From a bacterium (lineage in GTDB: Bacteria > UBA8248 > JACPRG01 > G963555815), in contig CBDHDG010000006.1 of assembly GCA_965261595.1 (NCBI GenBank), positions 1,753,419 through 1,817,418 on the forward strand: 64,000 bases of DNA, given 5' to 3'. This document shows positions 12,794 through 28,965 of this stretch, piece by piece (positions within the stretch are counted from its first letter, which is position 1; each line of letters opens with the position of its first letter). The translations under genes were made by a program, and so were the position numbers. The notes beneath the pieces are model-generated. The model ran no database searches and had not been told where the DNA came from. It was given only the letters and a program-made list of their open reading frames with translations.

Positions 12794-13415
12794 GTGGAGT
12801 CACTCATACGTTACCTCCTTTATTCTTCCCAATAGCAAGAAAGATATGAGTGACAATCTTGTCTTTTGGCTCACATATGGACATGAGGGTAAAGGTTGTT
12901 CGTTGTCACTAACTGTTCCGCGTAGTCAATTACAGAAAGTCCTTTACGGCCCTAAGAAGGTGAAATCCACTGCGAATGCACTGAGGTCTATCTTGGATTT
13001 ATTAGGTCAGTTAGTAAAAATCGAGAATCGATCAATACGGGGGAGTATCCAGAACAAATTGGCGGAGACCGTTTGGAAATCTCTGGAAAGAATCCGCTAC
13101 TTGTATAAGAGTGAAGCATGCGAATATGAGAACGAATGCCGTTTTGTTGTTGCTGAATCAGATATTTCCGAGAAGGATAACATCCGTTTTGAAGATCAGG
13201 GTCGAAACAATTCTCCTGCGCGCCTAAGACATTATTACGAGCACGAGACTCTTGAGATTAAGAAACTGTTGGGCACTAATAGTTCAATCACACTTGGCCC
13301 TTCTGTCTCTAATTACTACAATATACACTATTACATCCAAACGCTACTGGACAAAGCAGATTTGTCGTTCAATCCGACAATCAAAAAATCCTCAATATCC
13401 TTTCGAAAATCTTGA
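12794..13415 (+). pseudogene. DUF2971-like protein, C-terminal part
   Basis: SYVTSFI...DNLVFWLTYG..GCSL...VLYG...RYLYKS...EYENECR...ITLGP; the frame begins at the IS end. Confidence 0.7.
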
Positions 13416-14853
13416 CGGCTCGTTGCCACGTCAAGCGCCATACCGGCGTTCTTTCTTCGATCTTTTTCGCCCTTATCAAATAGGACGGATTTTCCGCATC
13501 ACCCTGCGCGCGGCGCTCACGAAAAGAACAGTTCGGGTGACACGCATCGTTGATAATGCGCGTTTCAGCGGTGACAAACTGGTAATCCTGTTGCCGCACC
13601 AGCGGCCACCAATCGGCGGCGATCAGGTAGCGGAGCATCAAATTGACCTCCATTCCGGCAACGCCCAAGCTGAACGGAAAAACATTCTGGTTGCCGACCC
13701 GCTCTTCAGGAGGCAAATTACTGATGTAAGACGGATCGTCGAGTGACCCGTCCAATTCCATTACCACCATGCTCGAATTGTATTGCCCGTTGCAACGCAG
13801 GCATTGATGATAAGGCGTGACGATGTGCGCACGCCAATGCGCCGAAAGCAGGCGATCCTGCCGTCTGTCGGTTTCCATGGCGATTCCCCCGTCAATGACC
13901 GGAATCAAATGCGCCTGTGCGATGTAATTTAAGACATCCCGGGGAACCGGGCGGTCAACACAGCTGAAAAGAATATCGCAATCCAGCGCGGCTTTATAAG
14001 CCGCTTCGTCGTGAACCGAATCCGGCAAGGCGGTTATTTGAATTTCGTTGGCGGTGGCATTGCGTCGCATCACTCGCGCGGCCAAATCAACCTTCAATCT
14101 GCCGATGTCTTTCGCCGTTCCATAAAGCAAACGGTCGAGGTTGTGCTCTTCGACTTTATCGGGGTCGATCAGCGAGACTTGCACGATGCCGATTCGAGCA
14201 ATGGCCTCGGCGACGATGCAACCGACGCTACCAAGTCCAACAATGCCAACTGTCAAACGCGCGATTGAATTTTGTGCCTCGTGTCCCCACGTGTCGAAAG
14301 TGCGCTTAAGAACCTCTTTACGCAGCGGTGGTGGCGCAATGTCGTCATCAAAGTAAATTTTGTAGGACTGCGGCCCAACGACGCGGACTTTCCCGCACGG
14401 ATGATGGCGCATTTGCCCGCCGTCTCTTTCCCAAAACCGTGCGCTCCAATAGCCGTCGCTACCGATTGTCAAACCCACCAACGGCAAGCCTGTGGCCCCC
14501 GCCGGATACGCCAGAACATCCCGCTCTGCTTCGACATCGGCACCGCTCATTCCCTGCCATCCAGGACCCGGATGACTATGCATGAAGGCCAAACCCGCTT
14601 TTTTTTTGCACGCGACCTTTACCGCCCGCGCGAGGTAATCGGGTTCGAAGCTGGCGTTCCCGTGAAGGGTTCGCTCGTCGTTTTTCGGCAAGATGATTTC
14701 ATCGATTAAGGCGGTGCGACGCGATTGCCCCGTAGACGGACGCCACAAAGCGAAGCAAAGATCTTCCTGGTATTTGTCGCGCCGATAATGCCGTAACAAA
14801 TGCCCGCTGGAGGTCGAATCCGCTTCCGAGGTAAGAACGACCTCGTAACTCAT
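13381..14853 (-). CDS. JAB-like peptidase - ThiF/E1 fusion (BubCD-like)
   Basis: N-terminal QEDLCF...FMHSHP...SGAD; C-terminal GLGSVG, DPDKVEEHNLDR, CVD, CLRC. Confidence 0.88.
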   Translation of the reverse strand: MSYEVVLTSEADSTSSGHLLRHYRRDKYQEDLCFALWRPSTGQSRRTALIDEIILPKNDERTLHGNASFEPDYLARAVKVACKKKAGLAFMHSHPGPGWQGMSGADVEAERDVLAYPAGATGLPLVGLTIGSDGYWSARFWERDGGQMRHHPCGKVRVVGPQSYKIYFDDDIAPPPLRKEVLKRTFDTWGHEAQNSIARLTVGIVGLGSVGCIVAEAIARIGIVQVSLIDPDKVEEHNLDRLLYGTAKDIGRLKVDLAARVMRRNATANEIQITALPDSVHDEAAYKAALDCDILFSCVDRPVPRDVLNYIAQAHLIPVIDGGIAMETDRRQDRLLSAHWRAHIVTPYHQCLRCNGQYNSSMVVMELDGSLDDPSYISNLPPEERVGNQNVFPFSLGVAGMEVNLMLRYLIAADWWPLVRQQDYQFVTAETRIINDACHPNCSFRERRAQGDAENPSYLIRAKKIEERTPVWRLTWQRAVKIFERILRIF

Positions 14854-15227
14854 ATATCATTCCAAAATCGGCGCAGATGCTCGTTAAGGTAACCCATCAT
14901 GTGCTTTGTCGGCAACTGATCCCAGAGTTCGCCCGGAGGCCTACTCATTGCAAACCATTCTCGTCCACTCTCATCGGAATATTTTCCAACCGAGCCACCT
15001 CTCCCGTCGTCAATCGGAGGTGTCAAATGAATCCAATGGGGGGGATATTCAGGATACGGTTCACTTCCTTGCATGCTGATGCCCAGCGTGACTTGTTTGC
15101 CTTTGTAGGAACCGGTCTCGATTGTGTAAGGAAAAGAAACCACTTTCCCTTGCGGGCTATCGGACAAGCATGTTTCATAACCCAGTTCTTCCAATTCAGC
15201 TTTTATCCGGTCGATGTTGTCGGACAT
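14850..15227 (-). CDS. Prokaryotic E2/UBC-fold protein (BubB-like)
   Basis: YPEYPPHWIHL and WFAMSRPP...W motifs; ATGA overlap with the E1 gene; position between Ubl and E1. Confidence 0.72.
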   Translation of the reverse strand: MSDNIDRIKAELEELGYETCLSDSPQGKVVSFPYTIETGSYKGKQVTLGISMQGSEPYPEYPPHWIHLTPPIDDGRGGSVGKYSDESGREWFAMSRPPGELWDQLPTKHMMGYLNEHLRRFWNDI

Positions 15228-15617: not shown

Positions 15618-16985
15618 TCAATCAGCGCAATCATCAACTATCTCCATTGCGGAAGATCCAACCGCCTTGTCCGATTCGTCCGATAGATTGGCCTGGGCCT
15701 CGCGCACGTCGAGCTTGCCGGTGACGACATCGGCGATGAGGCGGGTGCGGTATTCGCGGAGAAGTTCGATTTGACGGCGGGCGCGGTCAACGGCGGCGTC
15801 GATGTCGGCGGTGGCCTTGTCGAGATAAGCGACAATGTCGATTTGTTCGGGGAGGGGTGGCGAAGAAAATACCACCCTTTTAAGGTGTGGCCAGTAGAGA
15901 TTTCGTTGAATGGAACCAACACCCCGTGAGCAGAGGAGGTATTGAGTCACCATTACTCGATCTTGAAAAAGCAGATTTGCGAAGTCTGGATGAAGTTTGG
16001 GATTCAGCGAAAGCACGATATAAGCCGGGCTAACGATCCCGGAATGGTTGGATACTCCAACAGAGCCACGCCATGCTTGCTGGTTGTTCAGAACGAAATC
16101 ACCGGGGTCAACGGCTTGGTATTTCGACAGATCTTCACTCGTCACGTTTGTACGCTTTTCTTCTGCCTCAAAAAAGCGGATGACACCCCGACCTAAATAT
16201 ACTGATAGTAGTTCCCGGTGCTGTTGGCCTGTAATGGACTTAGGGGTACCAATAGCACAAAGCGGTAAAGTCTCCCAATGCTCTGGCACGTCTCCCAGCC
16301 ACTCCACGCCAGAGGATTTGTACGCCGGGTAGGGTTGGCCGGTTAGGACATCAATCCGGCCCGTGACGGCGCGGTGAATGACGGCCTGCTTCTGCTCCTC
16401 CAGCAGCTTGATCAGCTTCTGCTTGGCGCGGATGCAGCGCCGGATGCGCCGGTCGGCGTGGTCCAGGTAGCGGACAATGGCGGCTTGTTCGGGGAGGGGT
16501 GGGAGAATGGACGGGTGGTTTCCTACATCCCCCACGCTGACGGCCTCGTACGTCGAGCCAGTAGCGACCATGTTTAAACCACGTCCAAGTACTTCAAGTT
16601 GATATTGAGCAAGTCCTGCATGTAAAACTTCATTGTTAGGGAGAATGGCGCAAAGTCCGCGACCAATGCCATATTCTTGATTCGCTATATTCAGCCGACC
16701 AACTGGTGCGCGGACCGACATAAGAATTGCGCCCGGAGGACTGATTTTCGATAGGGTGCGACAGAATTGTATAGGTTTTGGGTGAAGTGTCCCGAATTCC
16801 GCGCAGCCTTGTAGGAAGGGTGGGCCTATTGGAACATCGCTACAGTCGTCGGAGGGAGGAGACTGGCCAATGATTAAGGTCGCCGAGTGCTTCAAACGCC
16901 GCACCTCCCAATGCTCTGGCACATCGCCGAGCCACTCAACGCCGGAGTCTTTGTAAGCTGGATAAGGTTCAAAAGGGTATATCAT
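15618..16985 (-). CDS. hsdS: Type I RM specificity subunit
   Basis: Two PYPAYKxSGVEWLGDVPEHWE repeats, two PPLPEQ motifs, LIADVVTGKLDV. Confidence 0.95.
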   Translation of the reverse strand: MIYPFEPYPAYKDSGVEWLGDVPEHWEVRRLKHSATLIIGQSPPSDDCSDVPIGPPFLQGCAEFGTLHPKPIQFCRTLSKISPPGAILMSVRAPVGRLNIANQEYGIGRGLCAILPNNEVLHAGLAQYQLEVLGRGLNMVATGSTYEAVSVGDVGNHPSILPPLPEQAAIVRYLDHADRRIRRCIRAKQKLIKLLEEQKQAVIHRAVTGRIDVLTGQPYPAYKSSGVEWLGDVPEHWETLPLCAIGTPKSITGQQHRELLSVYLGRGVIRFFEAEEKRTNVTSEDLSKYQAVDPGDFVLNNQQAWRGSVGVSNHSGIVSPAYIVLSLNPKLHPDFANLLFQDRVMVTQYLLCSRGVGSIQRNLYWPHLKRVVFSSPPLPEQIDIVAYLDKATADIDAAVDRARRQIELLREYRTRLIADVVTGKLDVREAQANLSDESDKAVGSSAMEIVDDCAD

Positions 16986-19167
16986 TGTTCAGTTCATTTA
17001 TACTATTTTTGTCAATTGAATCGCTCCGACTCTCCGCTCCGGTATTTACCTCTTCTTTCTCGCTATTCTGAACTCCTCCTTGCCAATCTTCTGCGATAGT
17101 ATTCCAGTCAATTTTGCGTTTCTCTTCTCCCGTCCAGACATTCCAAAACTCTGGATCGTCGGAACGGGGCTGTTGCTGCTTGGGCAGGTCGTTCATCTTC
17201 ACCAGGACTGGTAGTTCCGATGCCCAGCCGAGCAGAATCGCACTCTGAGAGGGAAGCGAAGGTAGCTCGCGGAGGAGCCCTCTTAGGTTGTCAGGGACAA
17301 GCCTGTGGACGATCTCTTGGTCACGATCATTACTAATTCGGTGGAGGAGAAACGTATTGCACTGAGACAGAACCGTTGGAGAAAGATCGGACGGCCGCTG
17401 AGACGACAGAACCAGCCCCAGCCCGAACTTCCTCCCTTCGCGTGCAATACGCTCGAACACCTGACAGCAGACGGTTGCCGCGTCCATATTCTCTATATCG
17501 TCCTTGTAGCGTTTGATGAATGTGTGCGCCTCCTCCATCACCAGGACGGTAGGGAGCACGGTATTATTCAGCTTGACGAAACGCTGAAGCGCTTCGAAGA
17601 CCATGCGGGCTATCACCGCCGTGACGACATGAACAACATCGGTTGGCACTAGAGACAGGTCGATCACCGACACGCATCCGCCCTTGGCGTCATCGTCTCC
17701 GATATAGTCCTTAAGCCACTGATCGAGAGTAATACCACCGGTATCGTTGATAATCGCCCTCATCTTCGGATCTGACAAAAATGTACGGATGCGGACAATC
17801 AGAAAGTCTAGATACTGATTTACATTTTCCTGGTTCGCCAGAATCTCAAGATGGTCCGCAAGGTCCGTTCCCCTGAACGGAAGTGGGACGTCTTCGCTAA
17901 GTCCTTCATGGTAGATGATGCCCCCGAGGCTTTCGATGGCCTCCTGTAAAGCATCAATAATCGTCTTGACTTGATCTTCCGTGAAGGCGCGATAGTACTC
18001 TATAGGTTCCCCATTCTTCTCAAAGCTCTTGTAATTTGCTTTCAGCGCTTGGTTGATAGCGTCTTTCACTTCCTGTAGGTGACTGCTCGGAAATTCGGCG
18101 ATCTTTGCATCTAAATCGCTTTCGATGGCACTCAGGCGAAAGCCGAACTTGCTTTCGTCTGTCTTAATCGCTCCGGAACTCAAGTCGCGGCGGATCAAGA
18201 TCAGGTAAGAAGAGAGAGCCCTGCGTAGGGTGAGCTTTTTTTCCTCCTCGGTCGGTTCAGCGGCTCCTGTATGCCCAGCCTTGATTTCACGTAACGCGCG
18301 CCTGAGCAACGGCCGCTGCGTTCGTGCGCTTGCCTGTGTGAACGAACACCACTCGGCACTGTTCCAGAACCATAGCGGCACCTTCAGCGCAGTCTTGCTG
18401 TCAGCAGAACCCACTTTGAAAACTCGCGCCTGAACCGTGGAGTCACCGTCGCCAAAGGCCCTTGAATACTCACCATTGGGGTCCAGAACGATAAACCTTG
18501 CGTTGGGGTAGCCCATGTGGCCTTGTTCAGGACTCTGGGCATTGGAGAGATCCACACGGCCCTTTTGGGCCTGTTCAAGGCTCCAGCGGATCAGCCCGGC
18601 AACAGAGCAGGACTTGCCACTGCCGGTATTTCCGAGGACGGCCAGATGGCGCCCGAACAATCGATTCGGATCAACGCACACCTCCGCGTCGCCGGCAATG
18701 GGACTCGACCCGATTTTGACTCGCCTTTGTTCACCGGACTCGACGATCGATCGGAGCTGGGTCTCCGTCGGCAGCACCACGGTCGCGCCAACTGATGGCA
18801 ATGCATCTGCACCTCGTCTGAAGACAAAGCACCCATCTGCCCCCTCTCGGAGCATGCCTAGCGGGTTGAGGCGCAGCCTGCGAAGTGGGTAGGGCAAATC
18901 CACGAGGCCGAAATCCTGCATCCCGCGCCGCTTCGGGAACGCGGATCGTTCGACCGTCAACCACTCAATCTGGCCAGCCAGGAACCCTTCATCGACCGGA
19001 ATCAAGAGATAACCGTTGACCCGAGGAAACGGTCTGGGCGCACCGGCATTGAGCGCAACCGATTCGGGCGCCTCAATATCGATGGCTACCTTGATCTCGT
19101 CCGGAGACACAAAGTCCACCGTGCCAATCCGTAGACTACCGGTTTGCTCAAAGGGGGACTGGTTCAT
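16969..19167 (-). CDS. herA: HerA/DUF87 ATPase
   Basis: HLAVLGNTGSGKS, LDPNGEY, VMEEAH, AREGRKFG, SQRPS. Confidence 0.93.
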   Translation of the reverse strand: MNQSPFEQTGSLRIGTVDFVSPDEIKVAIDIEAPESVALNAGAPRPFPRVNGYLLIPVDEGFLAGQIEWLTVERSAFPKRRGMQDFGLVDLPYPLRRLRLNPLGMLREGADGCFVFRRGADALPSVGATVVLPTETQLRSIVESGEQRRVKIGSSPIAGDAEVCVDPNRLFGRHLAVLGNTGSGKSCSVAGLIRWSLEQAQKGRVDLSNAQSPEQGHMGYPNARFIVLDPNGEYSRAFGDGDSTVQARVFKVGSADSKTALKVPLWFWNSAEWCSFTQASARTQRPLLRRALREIKAGHTGAAEPTEEEKKLTLRRALSSYLILIRRDLSSGAIKTDESKFGFRLSAIESDLDAKIAEFPSSHLQEVKDAINQALKANYKSFEKNGEPIEYYRAFTEDQVKTIIDALQEAIESLGGIIYHEGLSEDVPLPFRGTDLADHLEILANQENVNQYLDFLIVRIRTFLSDPKMRAIINDTGGITLDQWLKDYIGDDDAKGGCVSVIDLSLVPTDVVHVVTAVIARMVFEALQRFVKLNNTVLPTVLVMEEAHTFIKRYKDDIENMDAATVCCQVFERIAREGRKFGLGLVLSSQRPSDLSPTVLSQCNTFLLHRISNDRDQEIVHRLVPDNLRGLLRELPSLPSQSAILLGWASELPVLVKMNDLPKQQQPRSDDPEFWNVWTGEEKRKIDWNTIAEDWQGGVQNSEKEEVNTGAESRSDSIDKNSINELNNDIPF

Positions 19168-20585
19168 GATGCCGACTCTTCTTGGTTCGGCGGGATGTCT
19201 CCTTGGGTGTCGCTGTCACCCTCTCTTGCATTCCACCGGGCCTTCAGTAGTTCCGCCATGCGGAAAGTCGTGCGGTCGATTGCCGGCTTCGGCAAGTAGT
19301 GGCCCACCAAGGCTTTAAGGTCGCCAAGGTGATCGCCGATCATCAGTGTGACCTGGGAGTTTCGGCCCAGTCTGTCGTATGTACGCATAATCCTGCCAAG
19401 GGGGTCGTCGTACGCGATAATCACGAGGTGCGCGGACGGGATTGTGAGCATGTCTTCGATCACTCGATTGATGTGCTCATCGCCAAAGCCGTAGCCGTAA
19501 CAAACCAAAGTGCTGTTAGGACGGCAGATCGCCGCAGCAAAGTCCCGAAACAGCTCGACGTATGGATAGGATGCGGTCTCCCGATCCTTGGCGGCATTCG
19601 GGTAGATCATGAGCCGAAGCGCATCCACGTTTTCGATCCCTGGAGCGGTCAGGTAGGGTGCCGCATCTTGCGCTCCGAACGGAAGCCCGATACGGCGAAT
19701 CGCCTCATCGCAGTCAACCCAGTCGACGGACCCGTGCAGCTTCGTGAAACGAGCCACGCCCTCCAGGTAGCGCGCCTCGCCGCGGATGCCGGGTGGGTTG
19801 TAGTGCAGATCGACATCAAGGCGTGACGCGCGGAACACCGGCGCCAGTGTTCCGACAAACCGGTCGATCATGCGTAATCCTGCCACATCGGCGCCCGCTT
19901 CAATGCACCGGTCGTAGTTCGTCGTAAAGAGATGCAAGCGTTCACGGGTGCCTGATCGGCTGGCGAAACTCATCAGAAAGCTGACGAGATAGTTGAAGGC
20001 CTCCTCACGTTTTTTGGGATCCGCTGAGGCAAGGTTGTGCTCCCCTTCCAAGAGTGAAGTTGTAAATGACTGGATTACTCTCGTCAGTCCTTCTCGTAAG
20101 GATGAAACTTGCGCATGACCGGAGGTTCCGCCTGCAATATCAGGCGGCGGGATAACCTCCAAGCCGCGGAGCAGCTCGTTCGCCACACGAACCTGATCCT
20201 CGAAATTTCCGCTCTCGCGCTGTGCGGCTTCAGCAACCCTCTCTGCTTCTGCCGAGATTTCATCATCGAAAATACCAAACTGGATGGATTGCATCCCCGG
20301 CAGCTCCTTGCCCTTCGCGATTCCATGGACGGCGTGGGTGAGACCCGAACCGATCAGCAAGGAAAGATGCTCGGATTGGACAAGTGCGGTCAGCCACGGC
20401 TCAATGCGGGATCGGAGCTTCTGCGGACTGAGGGGTTTGTCAGGCTTCGCCCAAGAGCACTTTGCGTCGGCTGACAACTGGAAGGATTCGTGCGGATCTG
20501 CCGATGATGAATCATGCTTCATCAACGACACCGGAACATGATCGTCTCGGGTCTTGAGTATCTGGCAGCTCTGTTTTGACGTCAT
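19164..20585 (-). CDS. SIR2-family NADase (Sir2-HerA system)
   Basis: LLIGSG, TTNYD, KLHGS, GYGFGDEHIN; ATGA overlap with herA. Confidence 0.92.
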   Translation of the reverse strand: MTSKQSCQILKTRDDHVPVSLMKHDSSSADPHESFQLSADAKCSWAKPDKPLSPQKLRSRIEPWLTALVQSEHLSLLIGSGLTHAVHGIAKGKELPGMQSIQFGIFDDEISAEAERVAEAAQRESGNFEDQVRVANELLRGLEVIPPPDIAGGTSGHAQVSSLREGLTRVIQSFTTSLLEGEHNLASADPKKREEAFNYLVSFLMSFASRSGTRERLHLFTTNYDRCIEAGADVAGLRMIDRFVGTLAPVFRASRLDVDLHYNPPGIRGEARYLEGVARFTKLHGSVDWVDCDEAIRRIGLPFGAQDAAPYLTAPGIENVDALRLMIYPNAAKDRETASYPYVELFRDFAAAICRPNSTLVCYGYGFGDEHINRVIEDMLTIPSAHLVIIAYDDPLGRIMRTYDRLGRNSQVTLMIGDHLGDLKALVGHYLPKPAIDRTTFRMAELLKARWNAREGDSDTQGDIPPNQEESAS

Positions 20586-20722
20586 GTGTTGCCTCCTCCC
20601 ATAACCTCCCCCAGAAGCCCCTCGGTCTCCTCCTCCAGCGCTAGAATATCGGCCCGGATCTCCTCCAGGGCCCGCATGGGCTTCGGCTTGCAGTCGGCGT
20701 AGGGTTTGAGATCAGCGATCAT
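20582..20722 (-). CDS. 46-aa chimeric ORF: HsdS-like N-terminus fused to an HsdM C-terminal tail
   Basis: MIADLKPYADC-KPKPMRALEEIRADILALEEETEGLLGEVMGGGNT; ATGA overlaps with both the fic stop and the sir2 start. Confidence 0.7.
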   Translation of the reverse strand: MIADLKPYADCKPKPMRALEEIRADILALEEETEGLLGEVMGGGNT

Positions 20723-21900
20723 GCGCCGGCCTCCGGCTCGGTGTCGTGGAACAGGTCGACGTAGCTCTGATACATGAACCTCCGGTTGCGTGTCCGGCCG
20801 GTGAATTCGCGCAGGATGCGGCTATCAGCCATCCGCGCGACCAGATTATTGGCCGCGGTGTAGGTTGTTCCGGTCAAGCGCTGCACGTTACTTACTGACA
20901 CGATCGGGTCTTCATAAATATATTCCAGAACGCGATGGCCATTGGCGGCGGCGCGGCCGAAGTTCTCGGTGATCACACGACGATGCTCTTCACGCAGAGC
21001 GAGTATCCGCCTTGCCGTTTCGGTCGCCTGTCCGCTCACCTCCACAATGCCGCGCAGGAAGAAGGTAAGCCACTTTTCCCACGTTCCGGCGTCGCGCACC
21101 GATTGCAACTCCTCGTAATATTGTTGCCGGTGCTGCTTGAAGAACCAGGACAGGTAGAGGACCGGCTTTTGCAACACCCCCTGCTCGCAGAGCAGAAAGG
21201 TGATGAGCAGCCGTCCCACGCGGCCATTGCCGTCCAGGAAGGGGTGAATCGTCTCGAACTGGGCATGGGCCAGTCCGATTTTGACCAGCAGCGGCAACTC
21301 CGTGTCGGCGTGGATGAATCGCTCCAATTGCGACATGTCCTCCGCGACCTGGTGGGGCGGAGGCGGGACGAAGAGGGCCTCGTGAAGCGTGCAGCCGGCA
21401 GGCCCGATCCAGTTCTGGCTGCTCCTCAGCTCGCCGGGCGTGAGATGAGAGCCCCGCGCGCCTTGGAGGAGCTTGGCGTGGATTTCTCGGATCAGTCGGA
21501 TCGAAACCGGCAGCTCAGGCAGCCTTTTCAGGCCGTGATTCATGGCTTTGACATAGTTCACCACTTCGCCTACGTCGCTCGCTCGATTCGGAGCGAATAT
21601 CCTCGCTTCAGCCGCCAGCAGGTCTTGCAGCGAGCTCTGCGTCCCCTCAATCTGGCTCGACAGCACCGCCTCCTTGCGGACGTACATGCAAACGAACAGA
21701 TCCGGATTGGGCAGCGTTTGGATTGATCCATCGAGACGCCCGAGTGCGCGATCGGCCTGCGAGAGCAGCGCTTGCAACTCCCCGGTGATTTTGACGGGCG
21801 GATCAGGCGGCAAGGGCGCCGGAATGAAAGCCCTGTAGCCGGCCGGCTGCGCGATATATCGCCCTGCTCGGGTGGCGTAGTCGGTTCGGTGCTCAGCCAT
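20719..21900 (-). CDS. Fic family protein
   Basis: HPFLDGNGRVGR motif, SSQIEG inhibitory motif, C-terminal HTH; start taken at MAEHR. Confidence 0.93.
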   Translation of the reverse strand: MAEHRTDYATRAGRYIAQPAGYRAFIPAPLPPDPPVKITGELQALLSQADRALGRLDGSIQTLPNPDLFVCMYVRKEAVLSSQIEGTQSSLQDLLAAEARIFAPNRASDVGEVVNYVKAMNHGLKRLPELPVSIRLIREIHAKLLQGARGSHLTPGELRSSQNWIGPAGCTLHEALFVPPPPHQVAEDMSQLERFIHADTELPLLVKIGLAHAQFETIHPFLDGNGRVGRLLITFLLCEQGVLQKPVLYLSWFFKQHRQQYYEELQSVRDAGTWEKWLTFFLRGIVEVSGQATETARRILALREEHRRVITENFGRAAANGHRVLEYIYEDPIVSVSNVQRLTGTTYTAANNLVARMADSRILREFTGRTRNRRFMYQSYVDLFHDTEPEAGA

Positions 21901-22094
21901 GTTGCTCTTTCTATAATTACAGAGGCAAAACAATCTTGTATTACATTTAAACTTTAATATAAAAAACTCAACAGCCTTATGCAAGGCTATCTGTAATATA
22001 AATGCCTTTGAAGGGTTATATTGAAAGTTGCATTGAATATAGGAGTGAAGTCCGTTCTTGCTAAAGGCTGTGTTGAATAAAGGCATTCCCGCCC

Positions 22095-24075
22095 CTACCC
22101 GCCGACAATCTCTCCCAGCAACCCCTCGGTCTCCTCTTCCAGCGCCAGGATGTCGGCGCGGATCTCCTCCAGGGTCCGCATGGGCTTCGGCTTGTAGAAG
22201 TAGCGGGTGAAGCTGATCTCGTAGCCCGTCTTCACGCTGTCGGGCGCGTACCAGGCGTCCGGCGCGTAGGGCAGAACCTCACGCTTCAGGAAAGCGTCGA
22301 TGCCGCCCTCGTCCAGCAGCGGAACCTGCTCGGTGTCGCGCAGGTCCGGATCGGGCTCGTACTCCACCACGGCGGGCTTGCCGTCTATCGTGGCCTCGAA
22401 CAGGCCGCGCAGCGGGTCGGCCCGGGTTCCTCTCTTGTGGATCTTCCTGATGACGGGCGAGGCGGTCTCGCTTCTGTCGCCGGTCTCCTTGAGCTTCTTG
22501 ATCTCGGCGGCCTTGCAGGCGCGGCTGGGGTCCGCGCCATCGATGCGCAGAGGCCGATCGATCGTCACCTTCCAGTAGCCGAAAGCGGCGTTGGGGAAGA
22601 TCCTGCTCTGCTCGGTTTCCTTGAAATCGAAAAACGCCTCGCAGATGCGGTCGATGTCCTCGTCCGACAGCTCGCAGTTCTTCTTGCCCAGGTTCTTGCG
22701 CAGGGGCCGGGACCATTGGGTGACATCGATCAACTGCACCTTGCCTTGGCGGCGCTCGGGTTTGCGGTTGGTCAACACCCAGATGTAGGTTGCGATGCCG
22801 GTATTGTAGAACATGTTGAGCGGCAGGGCGACGACGGCCTCCAGCCAGTCGTTCTCGATGATCCAGCGGCGGATGTTGCTCTCGCCCTGGCCGGCGTCGC
22901 CGGTGAACAGGGAGCTGCCGTTGTGGACCTCGGCGATGCGGCTGCCGAGCGGGGTGTTCCGCTTCATCTTGGAGAGCTTGTTGGCGAGAAAGAGCATCTG
23001 GCCGTCGCTGGATCGGGTGATGAGGGAATACTCGGGATCTCCCGCATGCTCGATCACGAAGCGCGGGTCGCGCATGTCGCTCTTCCCGCCCATGCGCTCC
23101 AGATCGCTTTTCCAGCTCTTGCCGTAGGGCGGATTGGAGAGCATGAAGTCGAACTCGCGAGCGGCGAAGGCGTCGTTGGCGAGGGTGGAGTGCTCCGGGC
23201 CGCCCACGATGTTGTCTGCGGCGGCGCCCTCGCCCTTGAGCAGGAGATCGGCCTTGCAGATGGCGTAGGTCTCGGCGTTGATCTCCTGGCCGTAGAGGTG
23301 GGTGGAGACCTCCTTGCCGCGCTCGGCGGCGAGCTGCTCCAGGGTCTCCTCGGCTACGGTGAGCATCCCGCCGGTTCCGCAGGCTCCGTCGTAGACCAGG
23401 TAGGTGCCGGACTCGATCCGATCGGCGATGGGTAGGAAAACGAGTTTCGCCATGAGCTTCACGGCGTCGCGCGGGGTCCAGTGTTCGCCGGCCTCCTCGT
23501 TGTTCTCCTCGTTGAAGCGCCGGACCAGCTCTTCGAAGATCGTGCCCATCCCGTGATTGTCGAGGCCGGGATGCCGGACAGAGCCGTCGGCGTTCAGGAC
23601 CGGGACGGGGCTCAGGTTGATGTCGGGCGAGGTGAGCTTTTCTATCAGCAGGCCCAGGGCATCGGCTTTGGAGAGCCGCGGGATCTGGTTGCGGAACTCG
23701 AAGTTGTCCAGAATGTCCTGCACGTTGGGCGAGAACCCGTCCAGGTAGGCCTCGAAGTCGGCCTTGAGCTGCTGGAGGTTGGCCCGCGCCCGCAGGTCCC
23801 GCAAGGTGAACTTCGAGGTGTTGTAAAAGGCCTGCCCCGCCGCCTGCCGCAGGGCCGGGTCCTGTTCGACCACGCCCGCCGCGTCGAGAGAGGCCTTCAT
23901 CTCCAGGACGGCCTGCTTGCTGCCTTCGAGCACCGAACCGAGCCTACGGAGCACGGTCATGGGAAGGATCACGTCCCGGTACTTGCCGCGGGACGTAGAG
24001 GTCGCGCAGGATGTCGTCTGCGATGCCCCAGATGTAGTTCGCAATCCAGTTGAGATCGCTGTTGTTCATCGCCAT
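22095..24075 (-). pseudogene. hsdM: Type I RM methyltransferase with +1 frameshift near 23990
   Basis: MNNSDLNWIANYIWGIADDILRDLYV then a frame change to RGKYRDVILP; YDGACGTGGML and NPPY intact. Confidence 0.9.
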
Positions 24076-24338
24076 TCCCGGGTGGTGATCGCTTTCAACT
24101 GTTTACCGGGCGCTCTTTCTGAGGCCGGCAACATGCAGGGCGTTTGTTCGTACGTCGCGTAGTTCGCCGAAACTTTACATGCTCAGAAGATAGCGATGAT
24201 TGGCGGCATACACAAGCAACAACTTGGCGTGGTGTCGAAGATGCGGCGAGCCGATGGCTCCACCACCTTGCGGTAAGAAGTGATCGGCGACTGGCGGCAT
24301 GATCATGTTTTCATTGAGGCAGTTTCAGCCATTTCAGT

Positions 24339-24957: not shown

Positions 24958-26202
24958 TCAATTTCCAGGTGGGTGCGCCTCCGCAGCCGGCACGTCTTCC
25001 CCCATCAGCTTGTCAATACGGTCGGCGATCCGCTGTGTGGGCTCTCGGAGCTGCTCCACCGTCCAGTCAGCGGCGTAACCCTCGGTCACGTCCTGGGGCC
25101 GGGCGTGATTGACGAGGCGCTTGGTCAGCGAGCGCGGCAGCATGAGTTCCCGCTCGGCCACCGTGATGAAGGCGTTGCGCAAACCGTGGAACCAGAACCG
25201 TGTTCCGCCCTCCTCGGTGATATCGCCGTAGAACCTCGCGATGTCCGCGACGTGTCCGCTCCCGCTCTTAGAAGACGGAAACACCCAGCCGTTCTGGCGC
25301 GCCGCCGGGTCGGCGTCCGCTAGGCGCTGCTCGAGGATGGCGGCGAGTTGCCGGGTGAGCGGAAGCTCCAGCGGCTCCCCGGTCTTGGTCTCCTCGACCC
25401 TGAGGATGCGCCGCTCCATGTCCACCTGCTCCCAGCGCAGCGAAACGATCTCGCCCCGGCGCATGCCGGTGTAGATGCCGATCAGGAAGATGTCGCGAAC
25501 CTCCGGTTCGAGGTCGGCGGCCTCGATGCCCGCGCGCCAGCGAGGCAACACCTCCGCCGGGCTCGATATCCGCCGCCTCCGCTTCCGGTGGAAGCGCCCC
25601 CCGGCCGCCAGCCACAGGTCGACTGGATTGCGCAAACCCTCGAAATCGACGCAGGGCCGGCGGTAGATCGAGCGCAGCATCGAGAGCGTCTGGTTGGCCG
25701 CCGACCAGCCGTTTCTGGCGGTGATGAGATTGAAGCGGTCCTCCACGTCCTGGCGGGTGATGGCGTCGAGCGGACGCTTCAGCCAGTCGGAGACGTTGAC
25801 CCGCAGGTTCTGTTGGTAGAGCCTGACGGTATTGGCTGCGCGGTTGGGATTAGCCGCCATGTAGACCTCGAAGGCTCGGGCCAGGGTGGGGACGCCGCGG
25901 GCATCGGCTCGTTCTCCGGCAGGATCCTCGCCCCGGGCGACGCGTCCGAGCAGGTCCTGGGCCATGCGCCGCGCCCGGTCTGGAGCGATGCGGCCGTAGC
26001 GTCCGATCACCACCCGCTTGTTGGGCGCCTTGCGGCCGCCGGAGCCTGCGCGGTAGTTGACGATGAACGACTTGGTGCCCGAGGGCTGGACGCGAACGCC
26101 GAAGCCCGTCAGCTTGTCGTCCCAGGCGATCCAGGACTTCTCTGTGGGCCTGGTGAGTGTCGTCCTGACCCTGGCGATGCGTTTTCCGGTGTTCTCGTTC
26201 AT
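24958..26202 (-). CDS. Tyrosine integrase with N-terminal arm-binding domain
   Basis: WDDKLTGFGVRV; TGMRRGE, HGLR, VNH, TEGY; start taken at MNENTG. Confidence 0.93.
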   Translation of the reverse strand: MNENTGKRIARVRTTLTRPTEKSWIAWDDKLTGFGVRVQPSGTKSFIVNYRAGSGGRKAPNKRVVIGRYGRIAPDRARRMAQDLLGRVARGEDPAGERADARGVPTLARAFEVYMAANPNRAANTVRLYQQNLRVNVSDWLKRPLDAITRQDVEDRFNLITARNGWSAANQTLSMLRSIYRRPCVDFEGLRNPVDLWLAAGGRFHRKRRRRISSPAEVLPRWRAGIEAADLEPEVRDIFLIGIYTGMRRGEIVSLRWEQVDMERRILRVEETKTGEPLELPLTRQLAAILEQRLADADPAARQNGWVFPSSKSGSGHVADIARFYGDITEEGGTRFWFHGLRNAFITVAERELMLPRSLTKRLVNHARPQDVTEGYAADWTVEQLREPTQRIADRIDKLMGEDVPAAEAHPPGN

Positions 26203-26322
26203 GCCCGGACTATAACACCGTGCATCAGAATTGGCAACACTATTGTCAACACACGAAAAGAAACCGGAGCGTTCGCAAACGTACGAATTGCGGTAGATCA
26301 GAGACAGGAATCCATTATAATT

Positions 26323-27222
26323 GGGGATTATAAAGGTTTTGACACCAATTGAGTGAGATGTTGGACCACCAGGGGAAAGAGATCCTGGTGTCGGTGATTG
26401 TAACGGAATTCCATCTCCTTCAGGTAGAGGGGGAACCGCTCTTTGGACACCCCATGATGTTTGATGAGCCTCTCCTTGGCGTAGGCCCAAAAGCCTTCCA
26501 GGCCGTTGATGTGCACTTTGCCCCGACTGAAGCGCCGATCATGATCCACCCGCAAGTGGCGATAGCCGCAGAACATCAGGGCGTCATAGACCCGGTAGCG
26601 GTCGGTGTAGACCACGCTGCCCCGACGGACCAACTTCACGGTGGAGGCCAAAAGGGTCTGGGCCTTGACGTTGCCGACCGCCTCCACCTTCACCCGGCCG
26701 CCCCGCTCCAATATGCCGAAAACAGGGACTTTACCCGCTGCGCCTCGGCCTCTCTTCCCCTTGCGCCTGCCCCCGAAGTAGGCCTCGTCCGCCTCCACCT
26801 CCCCTCGAAGAAGCTCCTGTCCCCCCGGCGTGCCGGCCACAAGACTGCGCCTGAGCGTCGTCACAGCCCTGAGCGCCGTCGGATAGCTCACGGCGAGTTG
26901 CTGGGCCATCTTGCGGGCCGAGACCTCCAGCTCAAAGAGCTTCACCACCCAAAGCCACTGCCGGGCCGAGAGGCGAAGCTGGCCCAGCCAGCGGCCCGTG
27001 AACGGCCCGAAGGTGTACCGACACCCAGCGCAGCGAAAGCGCCCTTTCGTGCCCACAACGTAGCATTTTCGACCCTCACAACGAGGGCAGATTTTACGCC
27101 TGTTTTTCTGACACGCCCTGAGCAAATGGCGTCTCGCTGTAACCTCCGTTTTTACAAGGCCTTCAAAGCTCTTTACGTCCATGACACCAGCCTAATCCGG
27201 TGTCATAGCCTTTACAATCCCC
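26323..27222 (-). mobile_element. Complete IS1595-family element (transposase 26328..27182)
   Basis: IRs GGGGATTATAAAGG / GGGGATTGTAAAGG; 8-bp TSD TTATAATT at 26315-26322 and 27223-27230; VEADEAYF, YTD, HINGLEGFW. Confidence 0.95.
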
Positions 27223-27696: not shown

Positions 27697-28965
27697 ATGT
27701 CAACACAGTCCGCCAAGCGAACCGCAAACGTCAAACTCACCCTCAGCAAACGCGCCGTCGACGCCCTCAAGCCCGCCGACAAGCCTTGGATCGCGTGGGA
27801 TAACAAGCTCACCGGATTTGGCGTCCGCGTCCAGCCCTCCGGCATCCGCTCCTACATCGTCAACTACCGCGCCGGAGACGGCGGACGAAAAGCCGCCAAC
27901 CGACGCATCGTCATCGGACGGCACGGACGCATCACGCCCGAGCAGGCCAGGCGGAACGCCCAGGAAATCCTCGGACGCGTCGCCACCGGCGAGGATCCCG
28001 CCGTAGACCGCGCCCGCTCCCGCGCCATGCCTACCCTGCGCGAGGCCTTCGAGGACTATCTGGCCGTCGGTCCCGAGCGCAGGAAGAGCACTCTAGACTG
28101 CTACCGCGGCACCGTCTACCGCGACCTCGGCGCCTGCCTCGACCGACCCCTCGACACCATCTCCCGCAAGGATGTCGAGCAGTGCTTCAACCGCCTCACC
28201 CGCGAGGCCGGATGGGTCCAGGCCAACAATGCAGTCAAGATGCTGCGCGCCCTCTACCGGCGCCAGTGTATCGACTTCGAGGGCCTGCACAACCCCGTGG
28301 ACCAGTGGCGCGCGGCCGGCGGGCGGCCCAACCGAGTGCGCCGGCGCCGCATCCCGCCCCCGGCCGAGGTCCTGCCCCGCTGGCATAAGGGCATCGAGAC
28401 CGCGGTGCGCAATCCCGTGGGCCGCGACGCCTTCCGCTTCGGCCTCTACACCGGCATGCGCCGCGACGAGGTGCTCGGCCTGCGATGGGAACAGGTGAAC
28501 CTGGAGGCCATGACCTTGCGGGTCGAGGAGACCAAGACCGGCGAGCCGCTGGAGCTGCCCGTCACCCGCCAGCTCGCCGCCATCCTCGAACGGCGTCTGT
28601 CCGAGCGCGAACGCTTCCCCGAGCACGCCCGGTCCTGGGTGTTCCCGTCGGAGACGAGCAGGTCGGGCAGGCTCAACAGCATGCAGCACCTCAACGCGCG
28701 CATCGGCGAGGCGGGCGGCGCGAAGTTCTGGTTCCACGCCTTCCGCAACTGCTTCATCACCGTGGCGAACCGCAACCTGATGCTCCCGAACAGCTTGACG
28801 AAGCGGCTGGTCAATCATGCACGGCCCTCGGACGTGACCGAGGGCTATGCCGCCGACTGGACCATGGAGCAGCTGCGCGAGAGCGCCCAGCGCATCGCCG
28901 ACCGGATCGATGAGATAATACAGGCAGGGATACCTACGGCGCGGGAATTCCAGCCAAAGGGGTGA
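27697..28965 (+). CDS. Tyrosine integrase, paralogue of 24958..26202
   Basis: WDNKLTGFGVRV; TGMRRDE, HAFR, VNH, TEGY. Confidence 0.93.
   Translation: MSTQSAKRTANVKLTLSKRAVDALKPADKPWIAWDNKLTGFGVRVQPSGIRSYIVNYRAGDGGRKAANRRIVIGRHGRITPEQARRNAQEILGRVATGEDPAVDRARSRAMPTLREAFEDYLAVGPERRKSTLDCYRGTVYRDLGACLDRPLDTISRKDVEQCFNRLTREAGWVQANNAVKMLRALYRRQCIDFEGLHNPVDQWRAAGGRPNRVRRRRIPPPAEVLPRWHKGIETAVRNPVGRDAFRFGLYTGMRRDEVLGLRWEQVNLEAMTLRVEETKTGEPLELPVTRQLAAILERRLSERERFPEHARSWVFPSETSRSGRLNSMQHLNARIGEAGGAKFWFHAFRNCFITVANRNLMLPNSLTKRLVNHARPSDVTEGYAADWTMEQLRESAQRIADRIDEIIQAGIPTAREFQPKG

Follow-up and report, generated by a model that had tools for sequence, protein, structure and literature searches.

Between fic and sir2 in the operon described here lies a 46-codon open reading frame (ORF) that joins, in a single frame, 12 codons from an hsdS-type start to the last 34 codons of an hsdM gene. 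Operons with the layouts hsdM-fic-hsdS and hsdM-sir2-herA-hsdS, the two candidate parents of such a chimera, exist elsewhere, and the same kind of junction recurs after fic in other genomes. We hold with high confidence that the ORF originated as a recombination scar, and we consider it likely that it is a scar kept open by the native start regions that it contains and by the passage of ribosomes from fic to sir2. Taken separately, whether the ORF has been kept for translational coupling is a question on which we find the balance even.

The operon and its genes

The window, the 64,000-nt stretch of bacterial DNA analyzed here, carries on its minus strand an operon-like series of genes in the order hsdM, spacer, fic, the 46-codon ORF, sir2, herA, and hsdS. 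The features discussed below are as follows:

22095..24044, minus strand: hsdM, type I methyltransferase, a 649-aa frame from TTG (PADLOC MTase_I, E=2e-226; Pfam N6_Mtase and HsdM_N)
22099..22197, minus strand: repeat copy 1, the 3' tail of the resident hsdM (YKPKPMRTLEEIRADILALEEETEGLLGEIVGG and stop), from the direct repeat and from comparison of its ending with L122 and L121
21901..22094, minus strand: AT-rich spacer between hsdM and fic, 194 nt, from alignment and pattern scan
20719..21900, minus strand: fic, SoFic-type Fic/DOC gene (PADLOC SoFic, E=4.1e-120; Pfam Fic_N and Fic)
20582..20722, minus strand: chimeric ORF, 46 codons and 46 aa, with ATGA overlaps with fic (5') and sir2 (3')
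20687..20722, minus strand: codons 1-12 of the ORF, derived from an hsdS 5' end, from start scoring and DNA comparison
20595..20693, minus strand: repeat copy 2, the hsdM-tail part of the ORF, from the direct repeat and tail comparison
19164..20585, minus strand: sir2, SIR2-like defence protein (PADLOC SIR2, E=1.7e-158)
16969..19167, minus strand: herA, HerA-type ATPase, the SIR2 partner (PADLOC HerA, E=1.6e-262)
15618..16985, minus strand: hsdS, specificity subunit, with the start MIYPFEPYPAYK as in L011 (PADLOC Specificity_I, E=2.7e-85)

Strong profile matches bear out all five neighboring genes as they had been named in a first-pass annotation. The SoFic match is full-length, covering model positions 5-359 of 361 with both the Fic_N and Fic domains present, and fic likely starts at M63 (position 21900), although its frame is open up to 22086, because relatives start at the equivalent ATG and have stops upstream of it. 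The genes of the SIR2-HerA defence system are adjacent in the window, as they are in 79 of 80 related loci (the other, L060, ends before herA). The sir2 locus closest to the window is L011, and the hsdS starts of the two share MIYP.EPYPAYK. The true start of hsdM is probably an ATG near 24075 in another frame than the one listed above: the conserved HsdM N-terminus (MAMNNSDLNWIANYIWGIADDILRDLYV) lies in one frame from this ATG and the remainder of the protein in another, and comparison of frames with L011, L035, and L129 points to an apparent +1 frameshift near 23990-23992 (within 23985-24080, minus strand), where the relatives carry one base fewer. The frameshift may mark a genuine inactivation or stem from faulty assembly; read depth at 23990 is dominated by hsdM genes of other organisms. 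In a search of PDB sequences, matches to HsdM were confined to the catalytic core (query residues 161-476) and did not reach the tail. With hsdR from L031 as query, copies were found only elsewhere in the genome and none near the operon, and the window operon does not hold a complete type I restriction-modification (R-M) system with hsdR, hsdM, and hsdS all intact. Because of the apparent frameshift in hsdM and the lack of a nearby hsdR, the operon may itself be decaying.

The spacer between hsdM and fic contains a single promoter-like site at 22064-22036 and, at 21991-21970, a single hairpin with a T-run after it, both of them consensus matches only; the hairpin resembles a terminator and counts against the explanation preferred below. 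This spacer is conserved before fic in L121, L122, L123, and L124 despite stop codons there, and it may hold fic's own control region or a small RNA. Directly after hsdS (13381-15227, minus strand) lie a 125-aa ORF without a family and a 490-aa ThiF/E1-like protein (Pfam ThiF, E=7.4e-29; PADLOC 'E1-E2' models), which look like a further two-gene cargo; at the site of this pair, related operons hold other cargo and then hsdR. On the upstream side of the operon are two tyrosine-integrase-like ORFs (24958-26490, with a Pfam Phage_integrase match, and 27697-28965), transposase-like ORFs were noticed by eye at about 10.5-12.8 kb, and the whole region looks like an integrated island.

A reading frame built from two gene ends

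The ORF at 20582..20722 translates as MIADLKPYADCKPKPMRALEEIRADILALEEETEGLLGEVMGGGNT followed by a stop. It had been described as ATGA-coupled at both ends, and both overlaps are present: one ATGA is common to the fic stop and the ORF start, and a second to the ORF stop and the sir2 start. A GGAGG resembling a Shine-Dalgarno sequence lies 7 nt upstream of the ORF's ATG, and GGAGGAGG lies just 5' of the sir2 ATG, within the end of the ORF. The join from fic through the ORF to sir2 is real DNA and no assembly artefact, because contigs from two runs belonging to different studies span it without differences: a 5031-nt contig from run X1 covers 18900-22167 and a 1234-nt contig from run X5, from another study, covers 19729-20962, each with 0 differences across the join. 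A look for RNA runs containing this stretch yielded none.

Compared with Pfam and PADLOC, the ORF matched 0 families, and it has no family or structural match. Considered as an HsdM, it lacks the HsdM_N and N6_Mtase catalytic domains and holds only the last 34 codons, in which the C-terminal tail YKPKPMR..EEIRADILALE.ETEGLLGE..GG of the window's HsdM family is present. Considered as an HsdS, it has no Methylase_S match and none of the conserved helices, the HsdS sequence ending after residue 12, and it does carry the HsdS start motif MI..LKPYP.YK, placed where ATGA is shared with the gene upstream. The RNA of the ORF folds no better than shuffled sequences (z=+1.26), an Rfam search gave only a chance-level match (E=0.81), and a complex predicted for the ORF with HsdS (alignments A2 and A3) scored 0.02, which speaks neither for nor against such a complex.

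The origin of the N-terminal part was assessed by scoring MIADLKPYADCK (ORF residues 1-12) against all possible starts in the fetched loci, taken as ATG, GTG, or TTG codons followed by an open frame of 100 codons or more. The best 14 of the 26,697 candidate starts were all HsdS N-termini, as the first-pass annotation had proposed from resemblance; the top one (MIADLKPYAEYK of L030, 10/12 identical) scored 46 against a mean of -11.3 and a standard deviation of 6.9, and the top-scoring starts coincide with the HsdS matches of their loci. At the DNA level, the ORF follows the hsdS start through TGC AAG (20687-20692, minus strand) and then hsdM from the codon CCG, so that the junction reads GAC TGC AAG CCG in the ORF, TTC TAC AAG CCG in hsdM, and GCC TAC AAA GAC in the fic-linked hsdS of L133. 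A crossover within T(G/A)CAAG, a microhomology of 6-7 nt, is plausible. The CTACAAG-like microhomology suggested earlier has a counterpart in the sequences, one that makes the account plausible but not provable, and against it stands the last junction codon in the sampled hsdS genes, which is AAA and not AAG.

Codons 11-43 of the ORF repeat the 3' end of the resident hsdM as a 99-nt direct repeat (20595-20693 versus 22099-22197, about 86% identical), and this partner is the only other match of the ORF tail in the 6.17-Mb genome (blastn E=1.8e-26). Codon by codon, 20 positions are identical, 9 differ synonymously, and 4 non-synonymously (including C/Y at the junction), in keeping with the initial description of a near-duplicate with mostly synonymous changes, and 11 of the 16 changed bases fall at third positions (binomial P=0.004). 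Divergence of about 15% with a third-position bias is as expected for two hsdM alleles, and does not fit a fresh duplication; since the tails differ mostly synonymously, they would have diverged as parts of working hsdM genes before they were joined. For the same reason, that the divergence would have arisen in working hsdM genes, the synonymous pattern is no indication of selection on the peptide.

By its ending, each tail can be assigned to its neighbor, the resident tail to the fic lineage and the ORF tail to the sir2 lineage. The resident tail ends GEIVGG followed by TAG, an ending that it shares, along with the spacer behind it, with what is linked to fic in L122, L121, and L124 (the tails compared being those of L122 and L121). 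The ORF tail ends with GG, three codons, and ATGA, the form of sir2-linked hsdM tails; its protein identity with the sir2-adjoining tails of SIR2 loci L011-L062 is 62-85%. In nucleotides, the ORF tail matches the resident hsdM tail at 84/99 positions and any sampled sir2-linked tail at 79/99 at most, all of the sampled sir2 loci being from other phyla, and nucleotide identity with the sampled tails matched the ORF tail to no sir2-linked hsdM lineage. Its closeness to the resident tail could reflect gene conversion, local origin, or sparse sampling.

Parental layouts in other loci

The first-pass annotation had postulated two parental loci, and both layouts occur. Among 68 metagenome fic loci, 63 were examined (the other 5 lack the fic 3' end), and 4 of these 63 (L129, L130, L131, and L133) have a full hsdS with a 4-nt overlap at the fic stop. 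Two of the four, L129 and L133, have the hsdM-fic-hsdS layout of one parent, with HsdM 81% and Fic 73% identical to those of the window and with hsdS starting as MIAELKPYPACK or MIAELKPYPAYK (MIAELKPYPA(C/Y)K) on an ATGA overlap with fic; the gene order in L130 and L131 is the same. The layout of the other parent, hsdM-sir2-herA-hsdS, is found in 18 of 80 SIR2 loci, where an hsdM tail of the window's family lies at most 33 nt from sir2, and 17 of these 18 have an overlapping stop-start at the hsdM end (ATGA in 13, GTGA in 3, and TAATG in 1). As for the remaining SIR2 loci, 4 have such an hsdM further upstream with intervening cargo, 55 have none, and 3 include too little upstream sequence. L011 is collinear with the window (HsdM 81%, SIR2 78%, and HerA 78% identical) and has the hsdS start MIYPSEPYPAYK. 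A plasmid search with Fic gave 169 records, and the two that were examined hold no same-strand hsdM-fic-hsdS: fic is convergent with hsdS in Synechocystis pSYSX, and hsd genes are not nearby in a Microvirga plasmid record.

Related operons carry varied cargo between hsdM and sir2: two AAA ATPases in L021, one AAA ATPase in L046, a KAP NTPase in L033 and L038, and GmrSD, PRTase-CE, and NADAR in L051. The order in L033 and L038 is a KAP-family NTPase gene, then an hsdM-tail remnant, then sir2. In L013 (5929-6004), a decayed hsdM-tail remnant is fused in frame to the SIR2 start with no hsdM upstream, which suggests that this SIR2 gene once sat behind an hsdM.

Recurrence of the junction in relatives

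Matches to fic are present in 26 of 51 genomes of the phylum, four of them close (79-82% identical), and a junction of the ORF type stands straight after all four of these closest fic genes (three clear, one weak). In L124 the version is open and 37 codons long, with an in-frame deletion of 9 codons; the one in L121 is interrupted by an in-frame stop, that in L122 is truncated, and that in L123 is faint. The version in L176 is like that in L124, but with an internal stop directly followed by ATG. After the junction, L124 and L176 have a gene for an Mrr-like nuclease and L121 an uncharacterized 335-aa ORF; in none of these loci is the next gene sir2. Four homologues of 43-46 aa that stand alone and are intact (P0002-P0005) came from a metagenome protein collection. 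Two of these end GGGNT like the window's ORF, and P0005 and L124 have the N-terminal part MIACFEPC.EW in common and different 3' ends. Similar chimeras, which had been anticipated, were thus found after fic in three other genomes and as four intact metagenome proteins.

Because other genomes also have the junction after fic, but different genes downstream of it, the fusion appears to be inherited and older than the window locus. The comparison indicates that the 5' third of the ORF is passed on together with fic and its 3' end together with the following gene, as would be expected from crossovers inside the tail. A homologous crossover there, later than the fusion, may have created the link between the ORF and sir2. 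The original proposal that the two parental loci recombined is supported as far as the chimera and both parents are concerned, but the fusion itself would have been made before the window locus. The ORF has decayed in L121, L122, and L123 and is therefore not strictly conserved among the phylum relatives.

The same layout in a second hsdM family

Another hsdM family, with HsdM 24-28% identical to that of the window, is arranged likewise. An ATGA-coupled micro-ORF of 34-54 codons follows fic in 12 loci, and in 7/7 of such loci that also hold hsdM it repeats the tail of its own hsdM (REQQAEAAKLDAAIA.NLKELGYGG). The seven sequence variants of the micro-ORF are all open despite indels of 7-20 codons, and 5/7 end on an hsdS start. 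Judged by these variants, what the second family keeps is the open frame and the two overlaps and not the peptide sequence, and of the evidence at hand we take this pattern to speak most strongly for a role in translational coupling. By eye, the micro-ORFs of L136, L138, L140, L142, L144, L149, and L154 contain in-frame insertions resembling GC-rich palindromes, for example, a stretch encoding CLPGRQA and a 20-codon insert; these are possibly small hairpin elements between fic and hsdS.

Origin and role of the ORF

We propose an order of events in which an hsdM-fic-hsdS operon was joined to an hsdM-sir2-herA-hsdS operon, through recombination of two separate molecules or through a deletion that merged two adjacent operons. 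The break would have fallen at the short T(A/G)CAAG match between codons 11-12 of a fic-linked hsdS and the Tyr-Lys of a sir2-linked hsdM, 34 codons from its end, leaving as a remnant the hsdS ribosome-binding site, ATG, and 12 codons in frame with the last 34 hsdM codons, and the hsdM-derived tail would supply sir2 with its native ribosome-binding site and ATGA stop-start overlap. The fusion may then have travelled with fic while its 3' end was exchanged by homologous crossovers with other hsdM tails, each exchange putting fic ahead of whichever gene followed the donor hsdM. Ribosomes leaving fic would translate the scar and restart at sir2, a translational coupling under which the scar would probably stay open. 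The two tail copies of about 100 bp that flank fic could serve as homology arms for its precise loss or re-insertion by ordinary recombination.

The same origin could have left a scar that is now neutral junk, whose translation, if any, serves nothing and which is intact here only through the short time elapsed, and we regard this as possible though somewhat unlikely. Decayed copies in L121, L122, L123, and L176 would be expected of such junk, as would the fast drift of the HsdS-derived residues (4/11 identical between the window and L124, where Fic is 82% identical) and the lack of a special RNA fold noted above. However, five copies are intact and without frameshift although their N-termini have diverged, the variants in the second hsdM family are open in 7/7 cases through in-frame indels, the internal stop of L176 is immediately followed by ATG, and the decayed copies sit in loci that have lost hsdM. 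A working micro-protein, in which a free HsdM C-terminal helix binds HsdS or HsdM and tunes the assembly of the methyltransferase or restriction complex, seems to us improbable. It would fit with a tail that is invariant at 21 of 28 columns (16-43) among the 5 intact homologues, whose N-terminal 11 residues vary, and with EcoKI models that place the HsdM C-terminal helical tail beside HsdS (PMC3510504). The tail conservation would arise equally well, however, if working hsdM genes had time and again supplied new copies of the tail, which the mosaic 3' ends suggest, and the middle of the second-family micro-ORF is broken by indels, so the peptide sequence is not kept there; nor does the ORF have a family or structural match. 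The earlier idea that the peptide competes for HsdM-HsdS pairing finds no support.

It would also be conceivable, if very unlikely, that no fusion of two operons took place and that fic was inserted into a single hsdM-sir2 operon with copying of the target, like a long target-site duplication. The two tails are indeed mutually closest among those sampled (84/99), and in the second family the first hsdS codons are retained in the left copy as well, as would be expected of a staggered insertion. Yet an hsdM-sir2 target does not contain the hsdS start that makes up the first 12 codons, and full fic-linked hsdS genes with the same start exist; moreover, there is 15% divergence between the copies, biased toward third positions, and their endings differ, each matching its own neighbor's lineage.

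A recombination scar joining two operons, which we prefer, may also have a more general function. Because two unrelated hsdM families reached the same layout, the hsdM-tail micro-ORF might be a selected portable adaptor, combining a ribosome bridge with a homology arm of about 100 bp and allowing recombinase-free hopping of cassettes between type I R-M operons; we offer this as a tentative suggestion only. If it is true, fic, and probably other cargo too, would be mobile between R-M operons, and the growth of defence operons would follow a general rule. Independently of this, the scar offers a concrete, testable route for the entry of cargo. Conserved hsd gene ends would provide the sites of crossover, and the surviving products would keep each gene's native start region and so leave short chimeric ORFs as records. 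Such micro-ORFs could be used as markers of cassette boundaries and past fusions in defence islands, and annotators should be warned that short hypothetical proteins of this kind may be gene remnants.

Comparison with known systems

That type I R-M operons can harbor defence genes is known, for example, from PrrC in EcoprrI and TgvAB in Vibrio cholerae VPI-2, and the 'guilt-by-embedding' survey by Payne and colleagues describes embedded genes and their functions (PMC11411939; bioRxiv 10.1101/2024.01.29.577857). The SoFic and SIR2-HerA cargo of the window resembles embedded PrrC and TgvAB in sitting between the hsd genes of one operon. Genes embedded in R-M operons have been used to discover immune systems, and in the portions of the embedding literature available to us we found no explanation of how the cargo arrives, nor an account of hsdM-tail remnants or hsdS/hsdM chimeric ORFs as a trace of stacking; in the accessible text of the survey (bioRxiv 10.1101/2024.01.29.577857), the term 'recombination' has 0 occurrences and 'hsdM' one. 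To what that literature covers in these portions, the window adds a chimeric junction ORF and a repeated hsdM tail as a footprint of stacking.

Two features of the ORF have precedents within type I R-M systems. In EcoKI, the overlap of hsdM and hsdS and their translational coupling are documented (PMC3510504), and the ORF likewise preserves overlaps of an hsdM end with the next start, here on both sides; unlike in EcoKI, the overlaps survive in a detached mini-gene between two cargo genes, and the coupling is one that we infer. For the origin of type IB enzymes, it has been proposed that the DNA for the HsdM C-terminal tail was moved and duplicated (PMC3510504, 'Evolution of Type IB RM enzymes'). 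In the window, too, HsdM-tail DNA has been relocated beside hsdS sequence and duplicated, but whereas the tail in the type IB proposal is fused into a working HsdS, the ORF keeps only 12 hsdS codons and is a 46-aa leftover. The arrangement also recalls integron gene cassettes, in that cargo is stacked in an operon-like array, each unit being bounded by a repeated sequence. It differs from integrons in having no integron integrase or attC-type structure: the repeat is the coding sequence of a neighboring gene, its RNA has no special fold, and the agent that we infer in the window operon is ordinary recombination.
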